Below, piece by piece: positions 17,885 through 32,147 of a stretch of DNA of 64,000 nt; the stretch's first letter is position 1, and each line of letters begins with the position of its first letter. The position numbers and the translations under genes were made by a program. A model generated the notes under the pieces. That model saw nothing but the letters and a program-made list of their open reading frames with translations, was not told the DNA's origin and ran no database searches. The stretch comes from Patescibacteria group bacterium (GTDB lineage Bacteria; Patescibacteriota; Minisyncoccia; Phycocordibacterales; PALSA-1337): assembly GCA_028865095.1 (NCBI GenBank), contig JAGWLA010000004.1:8428-72427 (forward strand), read 5' to 3'.

Positions 17885-18076
17885 TCAGAACTGCTCGCCC
17901 CATTTCTCCCATGCCGGGAAGACCGTCCCCGCCACGAAGACGCACGGCAGGATGAGCAGCGCGAGGAGGAGCCAGATCACCAGCTTGATGAATTTCGGGA
18001 AGACGGAAAGGATGGCGAAGAACATGTCCACCCATATGCCGACCAGGCCCTTCAATAGATCGCCGACGGTTTCCAT
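17885..18076 (-). CDS. Small membrane protein (63 aa, two predicted TM segments), 17 nt upstream of zwf
   Basis: METVGDLLKGLVGIWVDMFFAILSVF...LLALLILPCVFVAG; the longer track ORF (to 18202) would run into tRNA-Val. Confidence 0.45.
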   Translation of the reverse strand: METVGDLLKGLVGIWVDMFFAILSVFPKFIKLVIWLLLALLILPCVFVAGTVFPAWEKWGEQF

Positions 18077-18140
18077 ATGAGCTGATATACTATCGCACTC
18101 CTCTCGGCTGGTGCAAGGAGATCGGCGGACAAGCGGAGGC

Positions 18141-18217
18141 TGGTGCACCCTGCAGGGCTCGAACCTGCGGCCTCGCCCGTGTGAAGGGCGCGCTCTAGCC
18201 AACTGAGCTAAGGGTGC
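18141..18217 (-). tRNA. tRNA-Val (anticodon CAC), CCA encoded
   Basis: Minus-strand sequence GCACCCUUAGCUCAGUUGGCUAGAGCGCGCCCUUCACACGGGCG...AGGGUGCACCA folds as a cloverleaf; anticodon loop UUCACAC. Confidence 0.85.
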
Positions 18218-18240
18218 CTGTGATCTCTGATGCTTTCCTG

Positions 18241-18311
18241 TCGGGCTGCCGGGAATCGAACCCGGACCGCATCCACCCCATGGATGTATACTACCACTAT
18301 ACTACAGCCCG
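18241..18311 (-). tRNA. tRNA-Pro (anticodon GGG)
   Basis: CGGGCUG acceptor, anticodon arm CAUCC-AUGGGGU-GGAUG, T-arm CCGGG-UUCGAUU-CCCGG, 3' acceptor CAGCCCG + A. Confidence 0.8.
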
Positions 18312-18356
18312 GTTCCCGCGCCCGGCTCGGCGCGACAGGAGAAGCTTACGGCATTT

Positions 18357-18385
18357 TTGAGATTTTCACAAATACATGCTAGATT
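18357..18385 (+). promoter_or_regulatory. Candidate promoter for the plus-strand tRNA operon (TTGAGA-N17-TAGATT)
   Basis: -35-like TTGAGA at 18357-18362, 17-nt spacer, -10-like TAGATT at 18380-18385, 15 nt before tRNA-Ala(GGC). Confidence 0.4.
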
Positions 18386-18400
18386 ATGTCAGCCAGCAGC

Positions 18401-18473
18401 GGGCCATTAGCTCATCTGGTAGAGCGCACCCATGGCATGGGTGAGGTGACCGGTTCGAGTCCGGTATGGTCCA
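18401..18473 (+). tRNA. tRNA-Ala (anticodon GGC)
   Basis: GGGCCAU acceptor with G3:U70 Ala identity pair; anticodon arm CACCC-AUGGCAU-GGGUG; T-loop UUCGAGU. Confidence 0.85.
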
Positions 18474-18475
18474 CA

Positions 18476-18546
18476 CGGGGCGTAGTATAGTGGTAGTATA
18501 CACGCTTCGGGTGCGTGAGGTCCGAGTTCGATTCTCGGCGCCCCGA
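18476..18546 (+). tRNA. tRNA-Pro (anticodon CGG)
   Basis: CGGGGCG acceptor; anticodon loop UUCGGGU; T-arm CCGAG-UUCGAUU-CUCGG; starts 3 nt after tRNA-Ala(GGC). Confidence 0.8.
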
Positions 18547-18580
18547 CACGCGATAGAGGCCGCTTACCCGAAGCGGCGAC

Positions 18581-18651
18581 GGGCCTATAGTAAAGTGGTA
18601 TTACGCGGCATTCGCATTGCCGAAGCCGGGGTTCGACTCCCCGTAGGTCCA
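18581..18651 (+). tRNA. tRNA-Ala (anticodon CGC)
   Basis: GGGCCUA acceptor with G3:U70; anticodon arm CGGCA-UUCGCAU-UGCCG; T-arm CGGGG-UUCGACU-CCCCG. Confidence 0.8.
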
Positions 18652-18663
18652 CAGGCTCGATAA

Positions 18664-18696
18664 GCGAAAGCCGCTCTTCTGGGGAGCGGCTTTCGC
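18664..18696. terminator. Perfect 13-bp hairpin (GCGAAAGCCGCUC-loop-GAGCGGCUUUCGC) between the convergent tRNA operon and the small Cys-rich ORF; no flanking U-run
   Basis: Inverted repeat read directly from the sequence. It could act as a bidirectional transcription stop or RNA-processing element, but it is not a canonical intrinsic terminator. Confidence 0.4.
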
Positions 18697-18714
18697 GTCG
18701 CGACGGCCTTGGCG

Positions 18715-18792
18715 TTACTTGACGCACTCGCACTGGCTGCACTTGCCGGTGTGAGCGGCGTGGCCGCACTCGCACTTGTTCTCATCTGCCAT
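18715..18792 (-). CDS. Candidate 25-aa Cys/His-rich micro-protein MADENKCECGHAAHTGKCSQCECVK
   Basis: Short ATG-initiated ORF ending immediately before the 13-bp hairpin; 5 Cys + 2 His in 25 residues (CxC...H..H...C..CxC). The 62-aa track ORF (18715..18903) has an implausible N-terminus. Confidence 0.35.
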   Translation of the reverse strand: MADENKCECGHAAHTGKCSQCECVK

Positions 18793-18922
18793 AGTAGTAA
18801 GGACGATCAGTCGATTAGGCGGATAATCTCGACCTGAATCCCCATTATACCACCGCCGTCGAAAGAGAAAGCAAGCGCCGGTTGAACCCGCCGGCCTTTG
18901 CATGTAGTATTACCTGGCGCCC

Positions 18923-18951
18923 GAATGGGCCCGTAGCTTAGTTGGTAGAGC
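18923..18951 (+). repeat. 29-nt direct repeat AATGGGCCCGTAGCTTAGTTGGTAGAGCG (second copy at 19248-19276) flanking the GIY-YIG ORF
   Basis: Exact match seen by eye between the two loci, including 4 nt (AATG) upstream of tRNA position 1. Confidence 0.7.
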
Positions 18952-18983
18952 GTCCCGATGTGCATCGGGAAGGTCACCGGTCC
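18927..18983 (+). pseudogene. Truncated tRNA-like copy (5' 25 nt identical to tRNA-Ala(UGC), aberrant palindromic anticodon arm, no T-arm or 3' acceptor)
   Basis: GGGCCCGTAGCTTAGTTGGTAGAGCG is identical to 19252-19277; GGTCACCGGT is also shared; the anticodon arm is replaced by TCCCGATGTGCATCGGGA, which cannot give a 7-nt loop. Confidence 0.5.
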
Positions 18984-18997
18984 TTTGATAAAATGTC

Positions 18998-19261
18998 ATG
19001 CATTATGTATATATCTTGCAGAGTCTGAAGACTGGCCGCTATTACATCGGCAGCACGAACGATGTGCGACGCCGCTTAGGCGAGCATAATTCGGGAAGCA
19101 CCCCATCCTTGAAGCATCAGAGACCGCTCGCTCTAGTGTTCCGCAAGGGATATTCCGTCGCTTCGGAAGCGAAGGCGGTCGAACGAAAGCTCAAGCGCTA
19201 TAAGAGCCGCTCTATCCTAGAGAGGATCATCTCCGAGAAAGATATACTAATGGGCCCGTAG
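18998..19261 (+). CDS. GIY-YIG nuclease-family protein (YhbQ/UPF0213-like, 87 aa)
   Basis: MHYVYILQSLKTGRYYIGSTNDVRRRLGEHN carries the GIY...YIG and R...E...N motifs. The stop codon TAG (19259-19261) lies inside the 5' acceptor stem of tRNA-Ala(UGC). Confidence 0.75.
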   Translation: MHYVYILQSLKTGRYYIGSTNDVRRRLGEHNSGSTPSLKHQRPLALVFRKGYSVASEAKAVERKLKRYKSRSILERIISEKDILMGP

Positions 19262-19327
19262 CTTAGTTGGTAGAGCGCCTCATTTGCAATGAGGAGGTCA
19301 CCGGTTCGAATCCGGTCGGGTCCACCA
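19252..19327 (+). tRNA. tRNA-Ala (anticodon UGC), CCA encoded
   Basis: GGGCCCG acceptor with G3:U70; anticodon arm CCUCA-UUUGCAA-UGAGG; T-arm CCGGU-UCGAAUC-CGG; ends ...GGGTCCACCA. Confidence 0.9.
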
Positions 19328-19633
19328 TAGATGATTTTTTAGCTGGCAATGTCTGATTGAGCTCGAAGATTAGCCCTAACTTCACGGTTCCAATTCCCCA
19401 CTGCGTTTATATAGATTTCATTGTATCATCAAGAGACAATCGAATATCGTTAGAAGTAGCCTAAACCGGCCCTGCCGGCATGGTCACAAGTCCGATGGAG
19501 CACAGAGAACCCGTTATGGGGTTGCTTCATCGGCCTTGGTGGGAAACTGCCATGAGAAGGTTCGCCTTCTACCCATAGCGGGCTTTCTGTTTCTCGCTGG
19601 TGGGATTACCAGGCTCTTAAACTACAATTCAAT

Positions 19634-20821
19634 ATGGAAAATCTATTCGGGGTTCTGATACTTTTGTCTCTCTTGGCTCTGTGTGTCGGACTCATAAAAC
19701 CATCCTGGATCAAACTCAAGTCTCGTAAGCAAGTCTCGTGGATTCTTGGTGGATGCACGGTAGTATTTTTCATACTGTTTGGCGTAGTTGCGCCATCGGA
19801 TCAGTCATCTGTGTCGACGCCGGCGGCGGCTGTTCCGGTAAGTAGATCTGTGGTCGATGCTACTGCCACAACGTCAGCGACATCATCTGTTACGCCTACT
19901 GTTCACGCAGACACTAAGGCATCCATGACGCCAGGCCAGATCTCATCCCTCGAGAAGGCCATAAAGACGGCCGCGACTACCCAGCTCACGACCGATTCAA
20001 TCTATGAAGGAGCGGCCATTAGTAGTGATGGAGTTGTAAAGGTGAATATCGGCGGGCCTGTATCTGAGCTATCCTTCGATAAAGACTCATTTATCGGCGT
20101 GACTGCCAGTCTTACACAGACCATGTTGCCGGTGATATTCGGGCACGGTTACCCAGTATCGTCGGCTGTTATCACGTATCTGGCCACGACCACAGGTTCC
20201 GATAATAAGCCGCAGAATACTGTCCTTGCCACCTATACTGTCGACCAGAAGACCTACGATTCTATAGACTGGTCCGTTACACAGGCCAGCACCTTGTGCG
20301 ATACGCTTAACAATCAAGTGGATGCGAATACCTCATGCGTGATCAGCCAACTCCTTAAACCGAGTCAGCCATCAGCCGAGGAACAGGAGATCATGAATCT
20401 GGTGGCCAAGGATTTGAATGCCTACCGGCCTGATATTCAGGGTACTTCGTATAAGAGCATTGACCTCAATGCCTCGTTGCCCCCAGGTCGTCCAGATGGT
20501 TCGCAGGCTATAATAATCAGCTTCAACGCGCCGGCGTATGTGACTTCACCGGCCAATTATGTCCAAGACATAAATCCATTTTCCACCAAAGTGTTCAAAG
20601 ATGTCTATGGACTGGACGCGAATATAACCGACATCCTTCTATGGTATTACACCCCTGATAACTCGAATGTGGTGAGTTACAACTACTACATCGATCGGAA
20701 TCTGTTCAGCCAGATAGATTGGAATACCTTTGATCCAAGACTATTATGTGGCTACTTGCAGGTGGAAAATAAACTGGGAGGAGATAATCCGGAAGCGTGG
20801 TGCAACGTGCCGTCTCAGTAA
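19634..20821 (+). CDS. Hypothetical membrane-anchored surface protein (two N-terminal TM segments, Ser/Thr-rich linker, extracellular domain)
   Basis: 395-aa ORF, lower GC than genome background, hydrophobic N-terminus, T/S-rich stretch. Confidence 0.55.
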   Translation: MENLFGVLILLSLLALCVGLIKPSWIKLKSRKQVSWILGGCTVVFFILFGVVAPSDQSSVSTPAAAVPVSRSVVDATATTSATSSVTPTVHADTKASMTPGQISSLEKAIKTAATTQLTTDSIYEGAAISSDGVVKVNIGGPVSELSFDKDSFIGVTASLTQTMLPVIFGHGYPVSSAVITYLATTTGSDNKPQNTVLATYTVDQKTYDSIDWSVTQASTLCDTLNNQVDANTSCVISQLLKPSQPSAEEQEIMNLVAKDLNAYRPDIQGTSYKSIDLNASLPPGRPDGSQAIIISFNAPAYVTSPANYVQDINPFSTKVFKDVYGLDANITDILLWYYTPDNSNVVSYNYYIDRNLFSQIDWNTFDPRLLCGYLQVENKLGGDNPEAWCNVPSQ

Positions 20822-21094
20822 TCTTGAATCTTGCTACTATTTTGAAGTAGGAGCGACCGAAGACTGACAGCTTTGAAAACTATCTACACGGCCAGGTTTG
20901 CAAAGGCTCAATGACGCTGGCTGAGGCACAGCACGAAATCTCGTCCAATTGGATGACCTATGACAATATCCGCAAGGGCTTCAAGAGCGCTACAACTACA
21001 TCGATTACTACCACCACATTTAATAGCTCTGCTCCGTCCCCAAGCCTCAACATGGCTGATCCTGCTGTCAAAAAGAGTACCACCGGCCTATGTC

Positions 21095-21745
21095 ATGCGC
21101 TTGGCTCTCGCTGCTGAGACTGGAAAAAGCAGGGAGGATATACTGGAAGCAGCCGTGGATGTATTGTTCGGCATACACGATGAGGGCTCTGATTATCTAG
21201 CATGGACTCCTCTCAATCAAAGAAGCGATCTCAATCCGCAAAATTTCAAGTCACAGAGCTTTTCCGATCCCGTCGATGGATATTCCATATTATATCCTGA
21301 AAAATGGGATATGGATGTCGGTTCTTCCCCGACCATCTTCCTTCTGGCTCCTTATGCCACTGATGGTATAAGGCCCGATATAGCGATTACGCCTAACAAG
21401 GCTCCGATCAGCTTTGATCTTGATATCTATGCCAGCAGCTTTCTATCGAAGCTCAAATCGGTCAAAACCGATATAACTGGAGACGTTGTCTCGAAACAGA
21501 CGACTTTCCAAAACCAGCCTGCGTACGAGATCGCTTATGATAGGCTAAGGACTTTCGATGGGGGCAGAACATACATTAAGCAGACTGACCGCTCTATATT
21601 GTTCTTCAGGAATAACATCGCTTACTTGGTCGAATATAGGAATGGAGTCGGAGATTTTCAAAACACCGAAGCTCTTGCCGACACAATAATCAACAGCTTA
21701 GAATTCAGCGTTCCCTGCACAGGCATTTGTACTAGCAGACACTAA
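21095..21745 (+). CDS. Hypothetical protein (possibly a frameshifted remnant of a longer gene; upstream partner ORF 20911..21117 is in another frame)
   Basis: The 20960-start track ORF has a non-protein-like N-terminus; a plausible start is MRLALAAETGKSRED; the frame-1 ORF 20911..21117 ends where this one becomes protein-like. Confidence 0.35.
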   Translation: MRLALAAETGKSREDILEAAVDVLFGIHDEGSDYLAWTPLNQRSDLNPQNFKSQSFSDPVDGYSILYPEKWDMDVGSSPTIFLLAPYATDGIRPDIAITPNKAPISFDLDIYASSFLSKLKSVKTDITGDVVSKQTTFQNQPAYEIAYDRLRTFDGGRTYIKQTDRSILFFRNNIAYLVEYRNGVGDFQNTEALADTIINSLEFSVPCTGICTSRH

Positions 21746-21760
21746 AATAGTCCCGCTGCG

Positions 21761-21949
21761 TCACCGATACTTCATGACCTTCGGCGTCTTGTCGGCGAAG
21801 GACTGCTTGAGGCCGCACCACGGGCAGATCCATTCCGCGCGCTTCGGGGCGTCGCCGATGCCCCACCAGCCTTTGCATGAGCCGCATTGGAAATGGACGA
21901 AGCGCTCCACGGAGGTCGACCCGCGCGCTTTCTTCGGCGCCCGCTTCAT
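21761..21949 (-). CDS. Small zinc-ribbon protein (62 aa, two CxxC pairs), 4-nt overlap with the ddl stop
   Basis: FQCGSCKGWW...ICPWCGLKQ; translational coupling geometry with ddl. Confidence 0.5.
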   Translation of the reverse strand: MKRAPKKARGSTSVERFVHFQCGSCKGWWGIGDAPKRAEWICPWCGLKQSFADKTPKVMKYR

Positions 21950-29851: not shown

Positions 29852-30100
29852 ATGCCGAAATTGCCAAGGCTTCGTTTGACTACTCACGCCCAGATGAGGA
29901 TGGTTGAAAGGACCATCGATATAGATAATGCCAAGCGAGCTATCGCCGAGCCGGATGAAAGGAAAGCTGATCCTTATGGAAAGATACGGGTAATCAAGAA
30001 GATCGGTGGCAGGACAGTCGTTGTGGTATACTCTGATGAGAAATTCAAGGATAGAAAAAACGAGTATCTGGTCATCACTTTTTACTATCTAGACAAATAA
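29852..30100 (+). CDS. DUF4258-family protein (putative toxin of a type II toxin-antitoxin pair)
   Basis: 82 aa; low GC; immediately followed (9-nt gap) by a DUF2283-like gene, the usual partner. Confidence 0.55.
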   Translation: MPKLPRLRLTTHAQMRMVERTIDIDNAKRAIAEPDERKADPYGKIRVIKKIGGRTVVVVYSDEKFKDRKNEYLVITFYYLDK

Positions 30101-30109
30101 TACAAAACT

Positions 30110-30349
30110 ATGAAATTCAATTATGATCGGGTGGCGGATGCGGTCTACCTCAACCTCAATGAAGGAAAGGTGAAGAAGACCTTAGAGATGAAAGATGACG
30201 TCATCGTCGATGTCGGCGAGAAAGGAAAGATAATCGGCATCGAGATTCTGAACTTTTCGTATCAACAGAAAGACAAGGATTCTATCGCCGATCTGGTCAA
30301 GTCAGGTGTCCCCATGCAGATAATCGAAGCGACTCCGACAGTGGCTTAG
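30110..30349 (+). CDS. DUF2283-family protein (putative antitoxin)
   Basis: MKFNYDRVADAVYLNLNEGKV...GKIIGIEILNFS matches the DUF2283 pattern (MKxxYDxEADAxYIxL...GIEIL). Confidence 0.6.
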   Translation: MKFNYDRVADAVYLNLNEGKVKKTLEMKDDVIVDVGEKGKIIGIEILNFSYQQKDKDSIADLVKSGVPMQIIEATPTVA

Positions 30350-30352
30350 CGA

Positions 30353-30590
30353 TTAGAACAACTTACCACCGACAATCGCACCATCTTTATCTGGCCGTAT
30401 CAGAATGACGTTGCCGTCCTTGTCCGGCACGCCCAAGGTCAGGACTTCGGACATGAACGGGCCGATCTTCCTGGGCGGGAGATTGAATTATTTCTTGTAC
30501 GCCGGCTTCCTGGCCTCCGGAAAATCGGACGCCTCGAGCACCCTGCCCACGCGTATGTCCAGCTTATTGAAGTCGTCGATGGTGGGCATG
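30353..30590 (-). pseudogene. Decayed CsaA/Trbp111-type tRNA-binding-domain gene (in-frame TAA after codon 33 plus internal deletion of ~30 codons)
   Basis: Manual translation: MPTIDDFNKLDIRVGRVLEASDFPEARKPAYKK* then the same frame continues FNLPPRKIGPFMSEVLTLGVPDKDGNVILIRPDKDGAIVGGKLF, matching CsaA blocks on both sides of the missing WIDFG...segment; genome-like GC, unlike its AT-rich neighbours. Confidence 0.55.
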
Positions 30591-30593
30591 AAT

Positions 30594-31130
30594 TTATGCA
30601 GTTATTTGATGCTTGAAATGGCTAAGCTTTATCGCAGGAATGCTACTTTGTTGAGCGTAGACGCTTAAGCCGAGGTCGTCGGTCAGAATAGCCAGCTTCT
30701 TGTCTTTTAGTCTTGCTATCTCGAATATGCCCAGATCAGTGAATCCGTAGTTGTATATTATTTCCACGCCCATACCCATGAATGATCTCATATCGCAGCT
30801 TTCTTCTTTAGCTGTCTCTAAGAAACAGATTATTGACTGGAAATAGTCTAATGACTTCTCGCCTCTGACCTTGAAAGCTTGTTTGGATAGATTAGATAAC
30901 TCGGCTAGGATATGCGGGGTGATCACCAGCTTTCTACCGTTGAATAGTCCTAATATGTTCTTGAGTTTAGCGTAGTCTTCCTGGTCGAATCCAGAGATAA
31001 TATTGCAATTGCCGATTAAGCTCTGGTCATAATCACCTATGAGCAACAGAAGCAACACCTGGGTATCAATGATGATGCCTTCAGGCTGGAATTTGAAGAT
31101 GTAAGCCTTTATCTCTTCGAAATCGAACAT
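30594..31130 (-). CDS. PIN-domain-like protein (putative nuclease/toxin), AT-rich
   Basis: IIIDTQVLLLL (first PIN Asp), ...ILAELSNL, ...LAILTDD acidic residues in PIN-like spacing; weak assignment. Confidence 0.45.
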   Translation of the reverse strand: MFDFEEIKAYIFKFQPEGIIIDTQVLLLLLIGDYDQSLIGNCNIISGFDQEDYAKLKNILGLFNGRKLVITPHILAELSNLSKQAFKVRGEKSLDYFQSIICFLETAKEESCDMRSFMGMGVEIIYNYGFTDLGIFEIARLKDKKLAILTDDLGLSVYAQQSSIPAIKLSHFKHQITA

Positions 31131-31135
31131 GAGAT

Positions 31136-31444
31136 CTACACCTTCCTTATTCTCATTGCTAGCACGCTCTTGCCATCAGCTGTGACATCAAAATCCTTGT
31201 ACTCTCTCTTCTTATCGAATTGCAAATCTCCGCTAACGTCGTAACTCAACGTTATCTTGAAATTCTTAGTAGTCTGGTCTGTCACAACTTCCTCTACTCT
31301 GAAATTAGAAAGTTTATCAAGTGATGTCCCACCAGCCACGAGCGCATTGACGAGGTATTTATAGGCCGTATTTACGGCTGTTGTTGTGGTTTCTGTAGAC
31401 ATATGAAAATGGTTAGCTATTGATTGATAATGCGTAAACGCCAC
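31136..31444 (-). CDS. Hypothetical protein (102 aa) immediately upstream of the PIN-like gene (possible cognate partner)
   Basis: 5-nt gap to the PIN gene on the same strand; AT-rich. Confidence 0.35.
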   Translation of the reverse strand: MAFTHYQSIANHFHMSTETTTTAVNTAYKYLVNALVAGGTSLDKLSNFRVEEVVTDQTTKNFKITLSYDVSGDLQFDKKREYKDFDVTADGKSVLAMRIRKV

Positions 31445-31664
31445 CTTATCATATCATGCTGTCTCCTCCAAACTTGGCTTGCACCTGTATAGATGCATGT
31501 ATAAGCTGTTAATTACAGGTGACAAGCGTCTGGACGTACGTAGTCTCTTGAGAATTACCGTTGCCGATCTCCAGTCTTGATCTGCTTGACAAAATTTTTG
31601 CCTTGAATCTTATCTTGTTCCCAAGATCCAACCCATTGAAACATCGATGAGAGAACCCATGAGA

Positions 31665-31943
31665 CTAGTCTCCTATATCCTCAATTGATTTGAATCCGGC
31701 CATGTTCATAAATTTTCTTCCTTTACCGCGTTTCTCATTTTCAAGCATATCAATTATTTTGATTAGAAACTTCTTCCTATCGATATTGTGACTGGAAGTT
31801 CTAGTTGAAGACATGATTTCTTCTTCAATTAGGGGACTTATCTCGAAACCGGCTAGAAAACCACGAACCTCGTGTGGCTTCAGCTCCTTATCCTTAAAGA
31901 AGTCTGATACCATTTTGTCTGCTTGTCGCTTAAGGAAAAACAT
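31665..31943 (-). CDS. Hypothetical small protein (92 aa), AT-rich island
   Basis: Abuts the upstream 67-aa ORF (stop/start adjacent); Lys-rich. Confidence 0.3.
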   Translation of the reverse strand: MFFLKRQADKMVSDFFKDKELKPHEVRGFLAGFEISPLIEEEIMSSTRTSSHNIDRKKFLIKIIDMLENEKRGKGRKFMNMAGFKSIEDIGD

Positions 31944-32147
31944 TTAGTTATGATTCTTGCTAATAATCTCAGTAAGTAAATGCTCGGCAATCATTTCTGG
32001 TTTTGAGCCACCAATCTGTGTAGCTTTTTCTCCGTATGAGGAGGAGACTTTAATTGTTTGCCCCTTAACTATGTAACGTCCGACAAACTCCTTTCCATCA
32101 ATCACAACTTTGATGTTCCTAGCATTGTCATAGTCCCTCTGATTCAT
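31944..32147 (-). CDS. Hypothetical small protein (67 aa), AT-rich island
   Basis: Adjacent to and co-oriented with 31665..31943; possible two-gene module. Confidence 0.3.
   Translation of the reverse strand: MNQRDYDNARNIKVVIDGKEFVGRYIVKGQTIKVSSSYGEKATQIGGSKPEMIAEHLLTEIISKNHN

Follow-up and report, generated by a model that had tools for sequence, protein, structure and literature searches.

The nearest precedent for the locus described here is SegB of phage T4, a free-standing GIY-YIG homing endonuclease encoded in the T4 tRNA gene cluster (PMC2330249). SegB recognises a TpsiC stem-loop motif, has a recognition site of 27 bp, implying sequence-specific DNA binding, and promotes the inheritance of itself and of neighbouring tRNA genes (PMC2330249). 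Group I introns with homing endonuclease genes have been described in the tRNA genes of Patescibacteria, in a report that does not mention GIY-YIG genes (PMC13011429). Stand-alone minimal GIY-YIG domains are known as the UPF0213, YhbQ or prokaryotic Slx1-like proteins, whose role is unknown (Dunin-Horkawicz et al. 2006, PMC1564403). In the literature searched, no tRNA-gene linkage, hairpin motif or mobility has been reported for the UPF0213 family, and no published description of the architecture presented below was found.

The tRNA-Ala(UGC) gene analysed here lies in a 64-kb stretch of Patescibacteria DNA (the window) and probably harbours a compact selfish element, similar in kind to free-standing homing endonuclease genes. 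As in the case of SegB, a GIY-YIG gene is found among tRNA genes in the absence of an intron, and the adjacent tRNA may have been co-converted; the tRNA fragment found here ends inside the T-loop. However, SegB is a phage protein, while the one described here is a cellular 87-aa catalytic domain with a fold nearer to Slx1/UPF0213 than to I-TevI, and SegB loci lack the hairpin-substituted partial tRNA copies, the ORF-tRNA overlap and the scar arrays present here or in the family. The UPF0213/YhbQ proteins (1ywl, 1zg2) share the fold, size and catalytic motif. Tyrosine-integrase islands, prophages and other integrative elements with tRNA genes as their targets also regenerate an intact tRNA and leave a partial copy at the other end, but here there is no recombinase, the insert is about 0.3 kb, the duplicated part can be 5′ or 3′, and the anticodon arm of the partial copy is a conserved hairpin. 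The group I introns occur in the same host phylum and likewise show tRNA genes housing endonuclease-bearing selfish DNA; they differ in that the tRNA described here is kept functional by duplication, not splicing, and there is no ribozyme.

Results

Organization of the tRNA-Ala(UGC) Locus

The features identified in the window are the following.

18882..18910, + strand: promoter-like site, TTGAAC, 17-nt spacer, TAGTAT (found by eye; 8 of 12 consensus positions)
18924..18952, + strand: direct repeat, upstream copy, AAT leader plus tRNA-Ala positions 1-26 (acceptor 5′ strand and D arm); 29/29 identical to 19249-19277
18953..18970, + strand: hairpin arm TCCCGATGTGCATCGGGA in place of the 17-nt anticodon arm
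18971..18981, + strand: copy of tRNA positions 44-54, AGGTCACCGGT (variable region, T-stem 5′ strand and first T-loop base); identical to 19295-19305
18982..18997, + strand: A/T-rich spacer of 16 nt, from the tRNA fragment to the start codon
18998..19261, + strand: GIY-YIG nuclease ORF, 87 aa, Slx1/UPF0213 type, catalytic domain alone
19249..19277, + strand: direct repeat, downstream copy (AAT plus tRNA positions 1-26), overlapping the ORF end and the 5′ part of the intact tRNA
19252..19327, + strand: intact tRNA-Ala(UGC) with encoded CCA and G3:U70 (ARAGORN; Rfam RF00005, 74.9 bits)
18953..19277, + strand: 325 bp extra with respect to an uninterrupted tRNA-Ala(UGC) (one of several equivalent insertion phasings)

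The direct repeat is perfect over 29 nt and its copies are spaced 325 nt from start to start. The first-pass annotation had detected it, but located both copies one nucleotide upstream (18923-18951 and 19248-19276) and read the repeated unit as AATG plus tRNA positions 1-25, when it is AAT plus positions 1-26. It correctly described the upstream copy as going on with a palindromic, non-tRNA arm and a segment shared with the intact tRNA before breaking off. This tRNA fragment (18927-18981) ends inside the T-loop, at position 54, and the same end point is found in related elements. The extent of the insert was defined by an alignment of the window, an empty site (L208) and another occupied site (L130), and the ORF takes up 264 of the 325 bp. 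The final 10 nt of the ORF, rather than the 12 first reported, are inside the tRNA, and its stop codon TAG (19259-19261), as had been noticed, is tRNA sequence, namely positions 8-10 (U8-A9-G10). The reading frame at this ORF-tRNA junction is conserved.

The downstream tRNA-Ala(UGC), which had been called intact, has a complete cloverleaf and anticodon loop, its Rfam match spans the full model, and the alanine identity pair G3:U70 could be read from its sequence. The upstream fragment, with 21.9 bits, falls under the Rfam tRNA gathering score of 29; it was not called as a tRNA by ARAGORN and has neither a complete cloverleaf nor a 3′ acceptor strand. Its arm folds as a 7-bp stem with a 4-nt loop, compared to the 7-nt anticodon loop of a functional tRNA. 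When the fragment (z = -1.46) and the whole unit were folded by minimum free energy, the result said nothing about function. Rfam in E-value mode over 17900-19700 returned solely tRNA matches and a LOOT RNA, and the fragment with its hairpin appeared only as a sub-threshold tRNA. A group I intron in the tRNA gene was rejected: no ribozyme was found in that interval, and most of the insert is ORF.

A promoter and terminator scan from the promoter-like site to the tRNA showed no other + strand promoter-like site and no terminator; the site at 18882..18910 itself scored just under the threshold of that scan. This site is probably the native tRNA-Ala promoter, which would now drive the fragment, the ORF and the tRNA. 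The GC content of the 325-bp insert is 51.7%, versus 61.6% for the window. A low-GC island of 2.5 kb is located just downstream of tRNA-Ala(UGC). A tRNA-derived direct repeat bounding this island, as expected of an integrase att site, was looked for and none was found.

The Nuclease

The ORF between the repeat copies, already recognised in the first-pass annotation as an 87-aa GIY-YIG nuclease, matches Pfam GIY-YIG (PF01541) over residues 1-69 with 57.3 bits (cutoff 22.6; E = 2e-15). It contains the residues Y5, Y16, G18, R26, H30, E62 and K66, conserved at 98-100% in 130 tRNA-linked relatives. The AF2 model of the protein has a pLDDT of 91.6 and an element order of E-E-H-H-E-H-H, in agreement with the alpha/beta fold of the superfamily, whose three-stranded sheet has helices at its flanks. 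A phmmer search of the PDB retrieved 1ywl (E = 1.8e-6) and 1zg2 (E = 3.2e-6). The top Foldseek matches were UPF0213 (1zg2), Slx1 structures and HIGLE (7wme), and then I-TevI (1ln0); in this ranking UPF0213 and Slx1 stand above I-TevI and UvrC. By profile match and modelled fold, the protein is a member of the GIY-YIG superfamily, within the UPF0213/Slx1-like minimal subfamily, and the conserved catalytic residues and matching fold predict a functional nuclease. The catalytic domain extends throughout the 87 aa, and neither Pfam nor the AF2 model revealed a DNA-binding or target-recognition domain. The relatives of this protein are mostly 80-120 aa long, and the tRNA-resident clade is ~33-37% identical to solved or cultured-organism UPF0213 members.

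After UPF0213, the best structural matches were the eukaryotic Slx1-Slx4 and At-HIGLE enzymes (4xlg, 6sei, 7wme), with query-normalised TM-scores of 0.62-0.70. These enzymes act on branched or stem-loop nucleic acids, a preference that would suit a cloverleaf or hairpin substrate. Unlike the protein described here, they depend on partner proteins and additional domains, and they work in repair or processing rather than being the products of mobile genes.

Empty Site and Origin of the Insert

A syntenic relative within the Patescibacteria (L208) carries the genes ddl, tRNA-Ala(UGC), a Cys-rich small ORF, Ala(CGC), Pro(CGG), Ala(GGC), Pro(GGG), Val(CAC) and G6PD in this order, and its G6PD is 82% identical to that of the window. 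In this genome the tRNA-Ala(UGC) gene is single and uninterrupted, it lacks the ORF and the hairpin, and it is also preceded by the AAT leader. Since the tRNA cluster is the same and tRNA-Ala(UGC) is uninterrupted in it, the 325 bp are an insertion polymorphism. The GC3 of the ORF is 0.65, while that of the neighbouring host G6PD gene is 0.93; by this measure the composition of the ORF is foreign. The tRNAs of this one genome pair match at 64/76 positions for tRNA-Ala(UGC), at 69/73 to 71/72 for four of the five neighbours, and at 68/77 for Val(CAC). These values are suggestive of co-conversion of the tRNA adjoining the ORF with the element, in a comparison limited to one pair of genomes and where Val(CAC) has diverged too.

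An all-against-all BLAST of the fetched loci for more empty and occupied pairs produced one clear case, L203 versus L200/L201. The order in L203 is tRNA-Thr, ORF and hairpin fragment. Its relative L200 has the same tRNA-Thr and flank, but the ORF is deleted save for its last ~10 nt, and a second ORF, 65% identical, is found across the tRNA from the deleted one. The comparison points to degeneration of the ORF followed by re-invasion at the same tRNA. The element is thus present or absent at otherwise conserved sites in both comparisons, L208 being empty and L200 having lost the ORF found in L203.

Architecture of Related Loci

Related loci were retrieved by a protein search with a 7-sequence alignment. 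Protein similarity alone gave 80 loci, and in 76 of them the ORF adjoins an intact tRNA on the same strand. These loci belong to at least seven phyla: Patescibacteria, Chloroflexota, Omnitrophota, Verrucomicrobiota, Desulfobacterota, Elusimicrobia and Acidobacteriota. The first-pass annotation had proposed that a small GIY-YIG element invaded the tRNA gene, and the empty site, the foreign GC3 and the tRNA linkage of the relatives all agree with this proposal. The same linkage speaks against the ORF being a gene of unrelated, tRNA-free loci, and shows that GIY-YIG genes in tRNA loci without an intron, thought at first to be unusual, are the rule for this protein clade. The closest homologues (L001-L007) have the order fragment-hairpin-ORF-tRNA or its mirror image, and most loci include copies of tRNA positions 1-26 and 44-57 upstream of the ORF, or of positions 13-27 and 45-76 downstream. 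In none of the tRNA-linked loci retrieved by protein do the copies include the anticodon arm. Arrays of hairpin fragments that lack the ORF were found at L047, L086, L099, L125, L163 and L190; these fragments are scars left after the loss of the ORF.

The nearest neighbour of an ORF is linked to a tRNA of the same amino-acid type in 63% of the cases (15% expected at random) and of the same anticodon in 49% (8% at random), which suggests that the ORF lineages are faithful to their tRNA with occasional switching. Nearest neighbours are mostly 60-85% identical. Recent intragenomic spread was looked for, and paralogues at one locus were merely 29-68% identical. Five Chloroflexota species carry the ORF at an orthologous, syntenic site with 72-81% amino acid identity. 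Searches of cultured phages and plasmids gave weak UPF0213-type matches, none by an annotated tRNA; RNA genes are absent from the PLSDB tables. Azospirillum also has a related minimal GIY-YIG ORF. The family comprises 4,556 protein clusters at 50% identity (E <= 1e-3). The locus is one example of a large class of tRNA-gene inserts in many uncultivated bacterial phyla, and this class spans thousands of protein clusters and at least seven phyla, mostly uncultivated.

The Hairpin

The hairpin has the sequence CCGATGNNCATCGG in Patescibacteria, and the conserved motif of the family is NYCCGATGNNCATCGGRN. This motif was found at the same tRNA position in L001-L007, at more than 100 metagenomic sites and in about 20 loci found by protein alone. 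The exact palindrome CCGATGNNCATCGG occurs a single time in the 64 kb, and over 100 independent assemblies share the arrangement; a chance origin is excluded. A DNA search with the hairpin only identified more than 120 metagenomic sites. By explicit D-stem and T-stem checks, about 100 of these are tRNA-like. The scan for the ORF covered 128 sequences (127 fetched loci and the window), of which 52 encode it. ARAGORN on constructs with synthetic 3′ halves let through 122 of 139 sites and was discarded as a test for 5′ fragments because of this permissiveness.

In 42 of 62 cases the replacement arm measures 17-18 nt. At the outer pairs (n = 103) there were 48 G-C, 21 T-A, 15 C-G, 6 A-T, 10 G.T wobble and 3 non-pairs. 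This substitution pattern indicates that the hairpin is under selection, with its outer pairs covarying. The first-pass annotation had offered a recombination relic as an alternative for the upstream fragment, a view at odds with a palindromic arm conserved and covarying across the element family. Wobble is almost all on the sense strand (10 G.T-type versus 1 C.A-type, in counts that are not phylogenetically independent). The inner 6 bp of the stem are conserved in sequence and the loop centre is free; no consistent relation was found between the two free central bases and the anticodon of the host tRNA. The hairpin variants include CCGAT, CCGAC, CCCGC and CCGAA stems, and those in other phyla are clade-specific. 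Among the 3′ fragments, 21 of 40 have a perfectly paired T-stem in spite of differing from the neighbouring tRNA, and full-length hairpin-tRNAs with compensatory T-stem changes were found at L016, L029 and L039.

Discussion

The reading that we consider probable is that of a homing-type selfish element made of two parts. One would be a partial tRNA copy, from leader to T-loop, with the anticodon arm swapped for a conserved, element-specific hairpin, and the other a minimal Slx1/UPF0213-type GIY-YIG nuclease gene, seemingly transcribed from the tRNA's own promoter and running into the regenerated intact tRNA. As the ORF runs into this tRNA and stops at U8-A9-G10, the host keeps a working tRNA, and the same overlap means that an imprecise deletion of the element would damage it. 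The nuclease would stimulate recombination at tRNA genes, the tRNA-derived arms (positions 1-26 and 44-54) and the intact tRNA would serve as repair homology, and the ORF with much of the adjacent tRNA would be copied into the empty allele, as with T4 SegB. The site of the break or insertion would lie where the fragment ends, within the T-loop. The hairpin is most likely the cis-acting recognition structure of the nuclease, and it may also, or instead, be a block of non-homology that prevents the loss of the ORF by recombination between the tRNA copies. Later the ORF would decay or be deleted, the hairpin-bearing fragments would remain as scars, and the site would be open to re-invasion. The first-pass annotation had suggested homing-style gene conversion; the footprint of an invasion is there, while we infer the conversion itself, and the protein is a bare Slx1/UPF0213-type domain.

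Transfer RNA genes have long been known to receive integrase-borne islands, and a few also house group I introns. The combination of an ~85-aa nuclease and a re-engineered tRNA fragment would be a third, apparently very common, way to inhabit them. If confirmed, it would provide a function for the bacterial UPF0213/Slx1-like proteins, which have long lacked an explanation, and serve as a marker of gene flow among Patescibacteria. Metagenome-assembled genomes contain odd 'tRNA pseudogenes' and contigs that break at tRNA genes, and many of these would be accounted for. For nuclease engineering, it would be an interesting natural case of a minimal nuclease that recognises tRNA genes or a defined palindrome of 14 bp.

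Several observations weigh against homing. A cleavage site internal to the tRNA would still be present in the intact copy, so that self-immunity is unexplained; the occupied allele retains a complete tRNA, and resistance by site disruption is not evident in silico. The protein lacks a DNA-binding domain and in its model resembles the structure-specific Slx1 more than the site-specific I-TevI, and the ORF lineages are old and diverged. Retention in five Chloroflexota species is as compatible with a long residence, perhaps of some benefit to the host, as it is with active homing. In addition, the sense-strand bias of the wobble pairs points to an RNA or single-strand role, which the DNA-homing model does not require. 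A rival explanation that we regard as unlikely is that the system acts at the RNA level. The nuclease would then have the hairpin-bearing tRNA fragment as its functional RNA partner, whether this serves as scaffold or guide, acts in the way of a type III antitoxin, or belongs to the mRNA of the ORF as a processing or stability element, and the protein would work on RNA or RNA-DNA structures, not as a DNA homing enzyme. The covarying outer pairs and their wobble bias, an arm kept at 17-18 nt, which is the size of a real anticodon arm, the perfect T-stems of many 3′ fragments, the compensatory T-stem changes of the full-length hairpin-tRNAs and the tandem fragment arrays beside the ORF, which resemble antitoxin RNA repeats, all agree with it. 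Being always co-oriented with and adjoining the tRNA, the ORF would form one transcript with it and the fragment. HIGLE (7wme), one of the top fold matches, reportedly cuts RNA. However, GIY-YIG enzymes are overwhelmingly DNases, and most fragments lack one acceptor strand and hence a full tRNA-like fold. The conserved inner stem with a free loop is the pattern of a palindromic DNA site, not of a protein-bound RNA loop, and the wobble counts lack phylogenetic independence. By itself, an RNA-level system explains neither the insertion polymorphism nor the scars nor the tRNA co-conversion. A related and rather unlikely proposal, in two versions considered jointly, is that the hairpin-substituted fragment works together with the minimal Slx1-like nuclease instead of being a scar. 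It could be an RNA or single-stranded DNA handle for an 87-aa enzyme devoid of a binding domain, tRNA genes being found by their cloverleaf or by base-pairing. Otherwise it could be the 'destroyed copy' half of a natural cleave-and-rescue drive, where the element disables the anticodon arm of the resident tRNA and supplies a linked rescue tRNA. In either version, it would represent a new target-choice or addiction mechanism for bacterial selfish DNA, acting on the most conserved genes there are.

An assembly artefact creating a false partial duplication is hardly credible. Short-read contigs of relatives often end within the repeat, but the arrangement recurs with different sequences in those independent assemblies, long contigs included, and the two copies differ in a structured way, one having the hairpin and the other the anticodon arm. 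It is also very improbable that the locus is the footprint of an integrase-mediated island or a recombination accident, with the partial tRNA as a duplicated att site and the ORF as passive cargo. A pair of tRNA copies, one intact and the other partial, is a common trace of integrative elements (PMC9897764), and the low-GC island is just downstream. This explanation is contradicted by the present data: the insert is merely 325 bp, no integrase-like domain was found by Pfam in the scanned ORFs of the insert and its flanks, the duplicated part is the tRNA 5′ and not the 3′ region, the anticodon arm is precisely exchanged for a conserved hairpin in more than 100 loci, the ORF-tRNA junction keeps its reading frame, and the downstream island is not bounded by a tRNA-derived repeat. 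A domesticated nuclease tied to tRNA genes and maintained by host-level selection, not by drive, is quite unlikely. It could protect tRNA genes against the integration of elements or, where these genes are highly transcribed, resolve structures at them, and the fragments would be decoys or by-products. The syntenic retention in Chloroflexota, the near-invariant catalytic residues, the old and diverged lineages, each bound to one tRNA type, and the Slx1-like, structure-specific fold fit this possibility. Nevertheless, a candidate host function was not found, the element occurs patchily and a close relative has an empty site, the codon composition is foreign, the ORF has been deleted to a remnant with re-invasion at the same tRNA, and many scars lack the ORF. 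The Azospirillum ORF, in turn, is wedged between sufB and sufC, a location typical of selfish free-standing endonuclease genes.

Structure of the tRNA-Ala(UGC) locus

The first-pass annotation had placed a GIY-YIG nuclease ORF and a truncated tRNA copy in front of tRNA-Ala(UGC). All its features were found as described, with the coordinates shifted by one base. The components are as follows.

Features of the tRNA-Ala(UGC) locus
18882-18910: promoter-like TTGAAC-17-TAGTAT, identified visually, matching the consensus at 8 of 12 positions
18924-18952: AAT leader and tRNA-Ala positions 1-26
18953-18970: perfect 18-nt hairpin TCCCGATGTGCATCGGGA, in place of the 17-nt anticodon arm
18971-18981: copy of tRNA positions 44-54; the fragment ends inside the T-loop
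18982-18997: 16-nt spacer
18998-19261: GIY-YIG ORF, 87 aa
19252-19327: intact tRNA-Ala(UGC)

An exact second copy of the 29 nt at 18924-18952 lies at 19249-19277, and the TAG stop codon of the ORF is U8-A9-G10 of the tRNA. With the Rfam tRNA model the hairpin-bearing fragment scored 21.9 bits and the intact tRNA 74.9 bits. The GC content of the 325-bp unit formed by fragment and ORF is 51.7%, compared with 61.6% for the contig, and the GC3 of the ORF is 0.65, compared with 0.93 for the adjacent G6PD gene.

Comparison with an empty site

The neighbouring G6PD protein was used as a search query, and a contig that encodes an 82%-identical homologue was fetched from a Patescibacteria MAG (L208). 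This contig and the window share the gene order ddl, tRNA-Ala(UGC), Cys-rich small ORF, Ala(CGC), Pro(CGG), Ala(GGC), Pro(GGG), Val(CAC), G6PD. Alignment of the window, L208 and an occupied locus, L130, showed that tRNA-Ala(UGC) of L208 is single and uninterrupted with the same AAT leader in front, and that fragment, hairpin and ORF are all absent from that locus. By this sequence comparison, the 325-bp unit of the window is an insertion. The tRNA-Ala(UGC) genes of the window and L208 are identical at 64 of 76 positions, while the remaining tRNAs of the cluster match at 71/72, 72/74, 70/72, 69/73 and 68/77. The divergent backbone is present in the fragment and the intact copy alike. Most simply read, much of the tRNA-Ala(UGC) in the window may have come in with the ORF.

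The tRNA-Ala(UGC) genes of L130 and L208 differ only in the anticodon stem, by two double substitutions that compensate each other in pairing: CCTCA/TGAGG in L130 (occupied) and CCGCT/AGCGG in L208 (empty). Change is thus concentrated in the very arm that is replaced in the fragment. L130 also has, at 1980-2004, a solitary copy of the last ~21 nt of tRNA-Ala(UGC), CGAAACCGCTCGGGTCCACCA, located ~130 nt downstream beyond a GC-rich stretch, which looks like the att-type footprint of yet another element.

Distribution of the element

The five ORFs most similar to that of the window (53-67% identity) lie in the same arrangement. A mirror-image layout was also found, in which an intact tRNA is followed after 1-2 nt by the start of the ORF and then by a 3′ tRNA fragment with the hairpin. 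Two handles, the hairpin alone and the protein alone, were used in searches. Metagenome contigs scanned with a DNA pattern of the hairpin in tRNA flanks, GCGNNCCGATGNNCATCGGNNAGGT, gave at least 120 stretches; among those listed, about 100 are tRNA-like fragments adjoining an intact tRNA and the others are chance matches in high-GC coding sequence. Among 128 sequences, the window and 127 fetched loci, 52 encode an ORF of the same GIY-YIG family.

When one genome per species was scanned with a protein pattern, 80 loci were obtained, distributed over Patescibacteria, Chloroflexota/Dehalococcoidia/SAR202, Omnitrophota, Verrucomicrobiota, Desulfobacterota, Elusimicrobia and Acidobacteriota. An intact same-strand tRNA, of at least 15 amino-acid specificities overall, adjoins the ORF in 76 of them, and most have partial copies of that tRNA. 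When the tRNA is 3′ of the ORF, positions 1-26 and 44-57 are copied upstream; when it is 5′, positions ~13-27 and 45-76 are copied downstream. The partial copies never matched the tRNA in the anticodon arm across these loci. Among 130 distinct ORFs, 88 end in TAG, which is usually U8-A9-G10 of a tRNA, or tRNA-like sequence, that the ORF enters. With 4,556 clusters in the protein family (50% identity, E <= 1e-3), the window element is, as judged from these searches, one of a very large class.

Short-read contigs with close homologues (L001-L005) stop 2-45 nt past the ORF, inside the repeated 5′ part of the tRNA; such elements probably break assemblies at tRNA genes systematically.

The replacement hairpin and the fragments

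The replacement arm is 17-18 nt long in 42 of 62 cases. Hairpins fall into clade-specific families (YCCGAT..ATCGGR, CTCCGAC..GTCGGAG, TCCCGC..GCGGGA, CCCCGAA..TTCGGGG). Among Patescibacteria, loci retrieved by protein alone included, the inner 6+6 bases are nearly invariant and the central two vary freely. Covariation is seen in both outer pairs: pair 27-43 (n = 103) is G-C in 48, T-A in 21, C-G in 15, A-T in 6, wobble in 10 and unpaired in 3, and pair 28-42 is formed in 101 of 103. Wobbles on the tRNA-sense strand are of the G.T type in 10 cases and C.A in 1, which hints at a sense-strand structure (RNA or ssDNA), the cases being phylogenetically non-independent. Many 3′ fragments have T-arm and Ala-like acceptor strands unlike the adjoining Val or Arg tRNA, yet pair perfectly; thus the fragment travels with the ORF and is not always a copy of the local tRNA.

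Full-length cloverleaf "tRNAs" with the hairpin replacing the anticodon loop occur just 5′ of tRNA-Val(GAC) and the ORF at five fetched loci (L016, e.g. 475-551, L029, L039, L055 and L143), and ARAGORN reports them as tRNA-??? with 4-base anticodons. Compensatory T-stem changes among such metagenomic genes (GGCGG/CCGTC, GGCAG/CTGCC, GACAG/CTGTC) suggest that the structure is maintained. Extra small GC-rich hairpins with similar ends (TCCCGAT…ATCGGGA, CCCCGAA…TTCGGGG, CTCCGAC…GTCGGAG) replace, or sit within, the T-arm or D-loop of pseudo-tRNA fragments at ten loci (L020, L023, L057, L091, L114, L121, L158, L174, L200 and L204). At times nested or enlarged to 30-55 nt, they behave as miniature palindromic insertions.

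The nuclease and its persistence

The 87-aa protein is a bare catalytic domain (PF01541) with the UPF0213 proteins EF2693 and BH0048 as nearest solved relatives. Its AF2 model is confident (pLDDT 91.6) and best matches UPF0213, Slx1 and HIGLE structures; I-TevI and UvrC rank lower. Tyr5, Tyr16, Gly18, Arg26, His30, Glu62 and Lys66 are 98-100% conserved in 130 tRNA-linked ORFs, indicating that the predicted nuclease activity is under selection. On Azospirillum lipoferum 4B plasmid AZO_p3 (255506-255799), a related minimal GIY-YIG ORF (~35% identity) separates sufB from sufC, a hint that in cultivable bacteria further conserved operons are home to different clades of the family.

Two Verrucomicrobia loci, L203 and L200, share tRNA-Thr(CGT) and its downstream flank. 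L203 has the order tRNA-Thr(CGT), ORF, hairpin fragment; in L200 the fragment is kept, only the last ~10 nt of that ORF are left, and another ORF, 65% identical and with its own 5′ fragment, lies upstream of the tRNA. Fragments lacking an ORF are common, also in tandem arrays. ORF phylogeny follows the amino-acid type of the tRNA (63%, compared with 15% by chance) with occasional switches, paralogues within one genome are old, and the ORF is kept at the orthologous tRNA-Ala(GGC) in five Chloroflexota species. Read from these comparisons, the element invades, resides for a long time, decays and invades anew, the course to be expected of homing-type selfish genes.

Proposed mechanism and alternatives

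The nearest characterised system is SegB, a GIY-YIG homing endonuclease of the phage T4 tRNA cluster, whose recognition site includes the conserved TpsiC stem-loop motif and which drags neighbouring tRNA genes along (PMC2330249). By analogy, the element would be a kind of free-standing homing-endonuclease-type selfish gene. The nuclease would provoke a break at tRNA genes, repair would copy an occupied allele whose tRNA-derived segments provide the homology, and the constant T-loop end of the fragment may mark the break or insertion site. The host would stay viable because the element regenerates a full tRNA. As the ORF overlaps the 5′ end of the tRNA, its stop codon would be cut off by RNase P, and one may speculate that this keeps nuclease levels very low. 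The hairpin could be a cis-acting recognition structure of the nuclease, a non-homology block against loss of the ORF by recombination between the tRNA copies, or both.

This homing proposal has weak points: the occupied allele retains a complete tRNA, so self-immunity is unaccounted for, the enzyme has no binding domain and looks structure-specific, and a route of donor DNA delivery would be needed. Two other, less probable explanations are kept alive. The fragment or hairpin may be an RNA partner (scaffold, guide, antitoxin or mRNA element), in favor of which are the wobble pairs on the sense strand, the conserved length of the arm and the arrays of fragments; or the nuclease may benefit the host, with which the long orthologous retention in Chloroflexota is consistent. 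Interpretations of the insert as an integrase island or an assembly artefact are contradicted by the data. Tentatively, we consider it rather unlikely that the fragment-nuclease partnership is mechanistically new. TRNA-resident minimal GIY-YIG genes or hairpin-substituted tRNA fragments were not found described in the full-text literature searched, the coverage of which was incomplete, so that an earlier description is possible; a GIY-YIG phylogenomic survey and a 2026 paper on Patescibacteria tRNA introns describe neither.

Neighbouring features

Other features of the window
18657-18703: bidirectional hairpin, after the Cys-rich ORF
18715-18903, minus strand: Cys-rich ORF, 62 aa (…MADENKCECGHAAHTGKCSQCECVK), between tRNAs, no Pfam match
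19328-21800: low-GC island between tRNA-Ala(UGC) and ddl, 2.5 kb, 47.9% GC (window, 61.6%)
19458-19570, plus strand: LOOT RNA (Rfam RF03000), 67.0 bits (gathering score 46.4), E = 5.9e-12
30001-32000: sharp GC trough, 42.7% GC in a ~62% contig

The low-GC island opens with the LOOT RNA, 130 nt 3′ of tRNA-Ala(UGC), and also contains ORFs of 395 aa (no Pfam match) and 261 aa (weak PsbP-like match). A tRNA-derived flanking repeat and an integrase were sought in the island and not found. In the syntenic L208 contig the interval between tRNA-Ala(UGC) and ddl is only 183 nt; the island of the window is thus another insertion at this tRNA, independent of the 325-bp unit. The GC trough may be a further island. 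The Cys-rich ORF is found at the same position in L208, and ORFs similar to it in size (62-64 aa) were called upstream of G6PD at three other loci (L209, L211 and L212).
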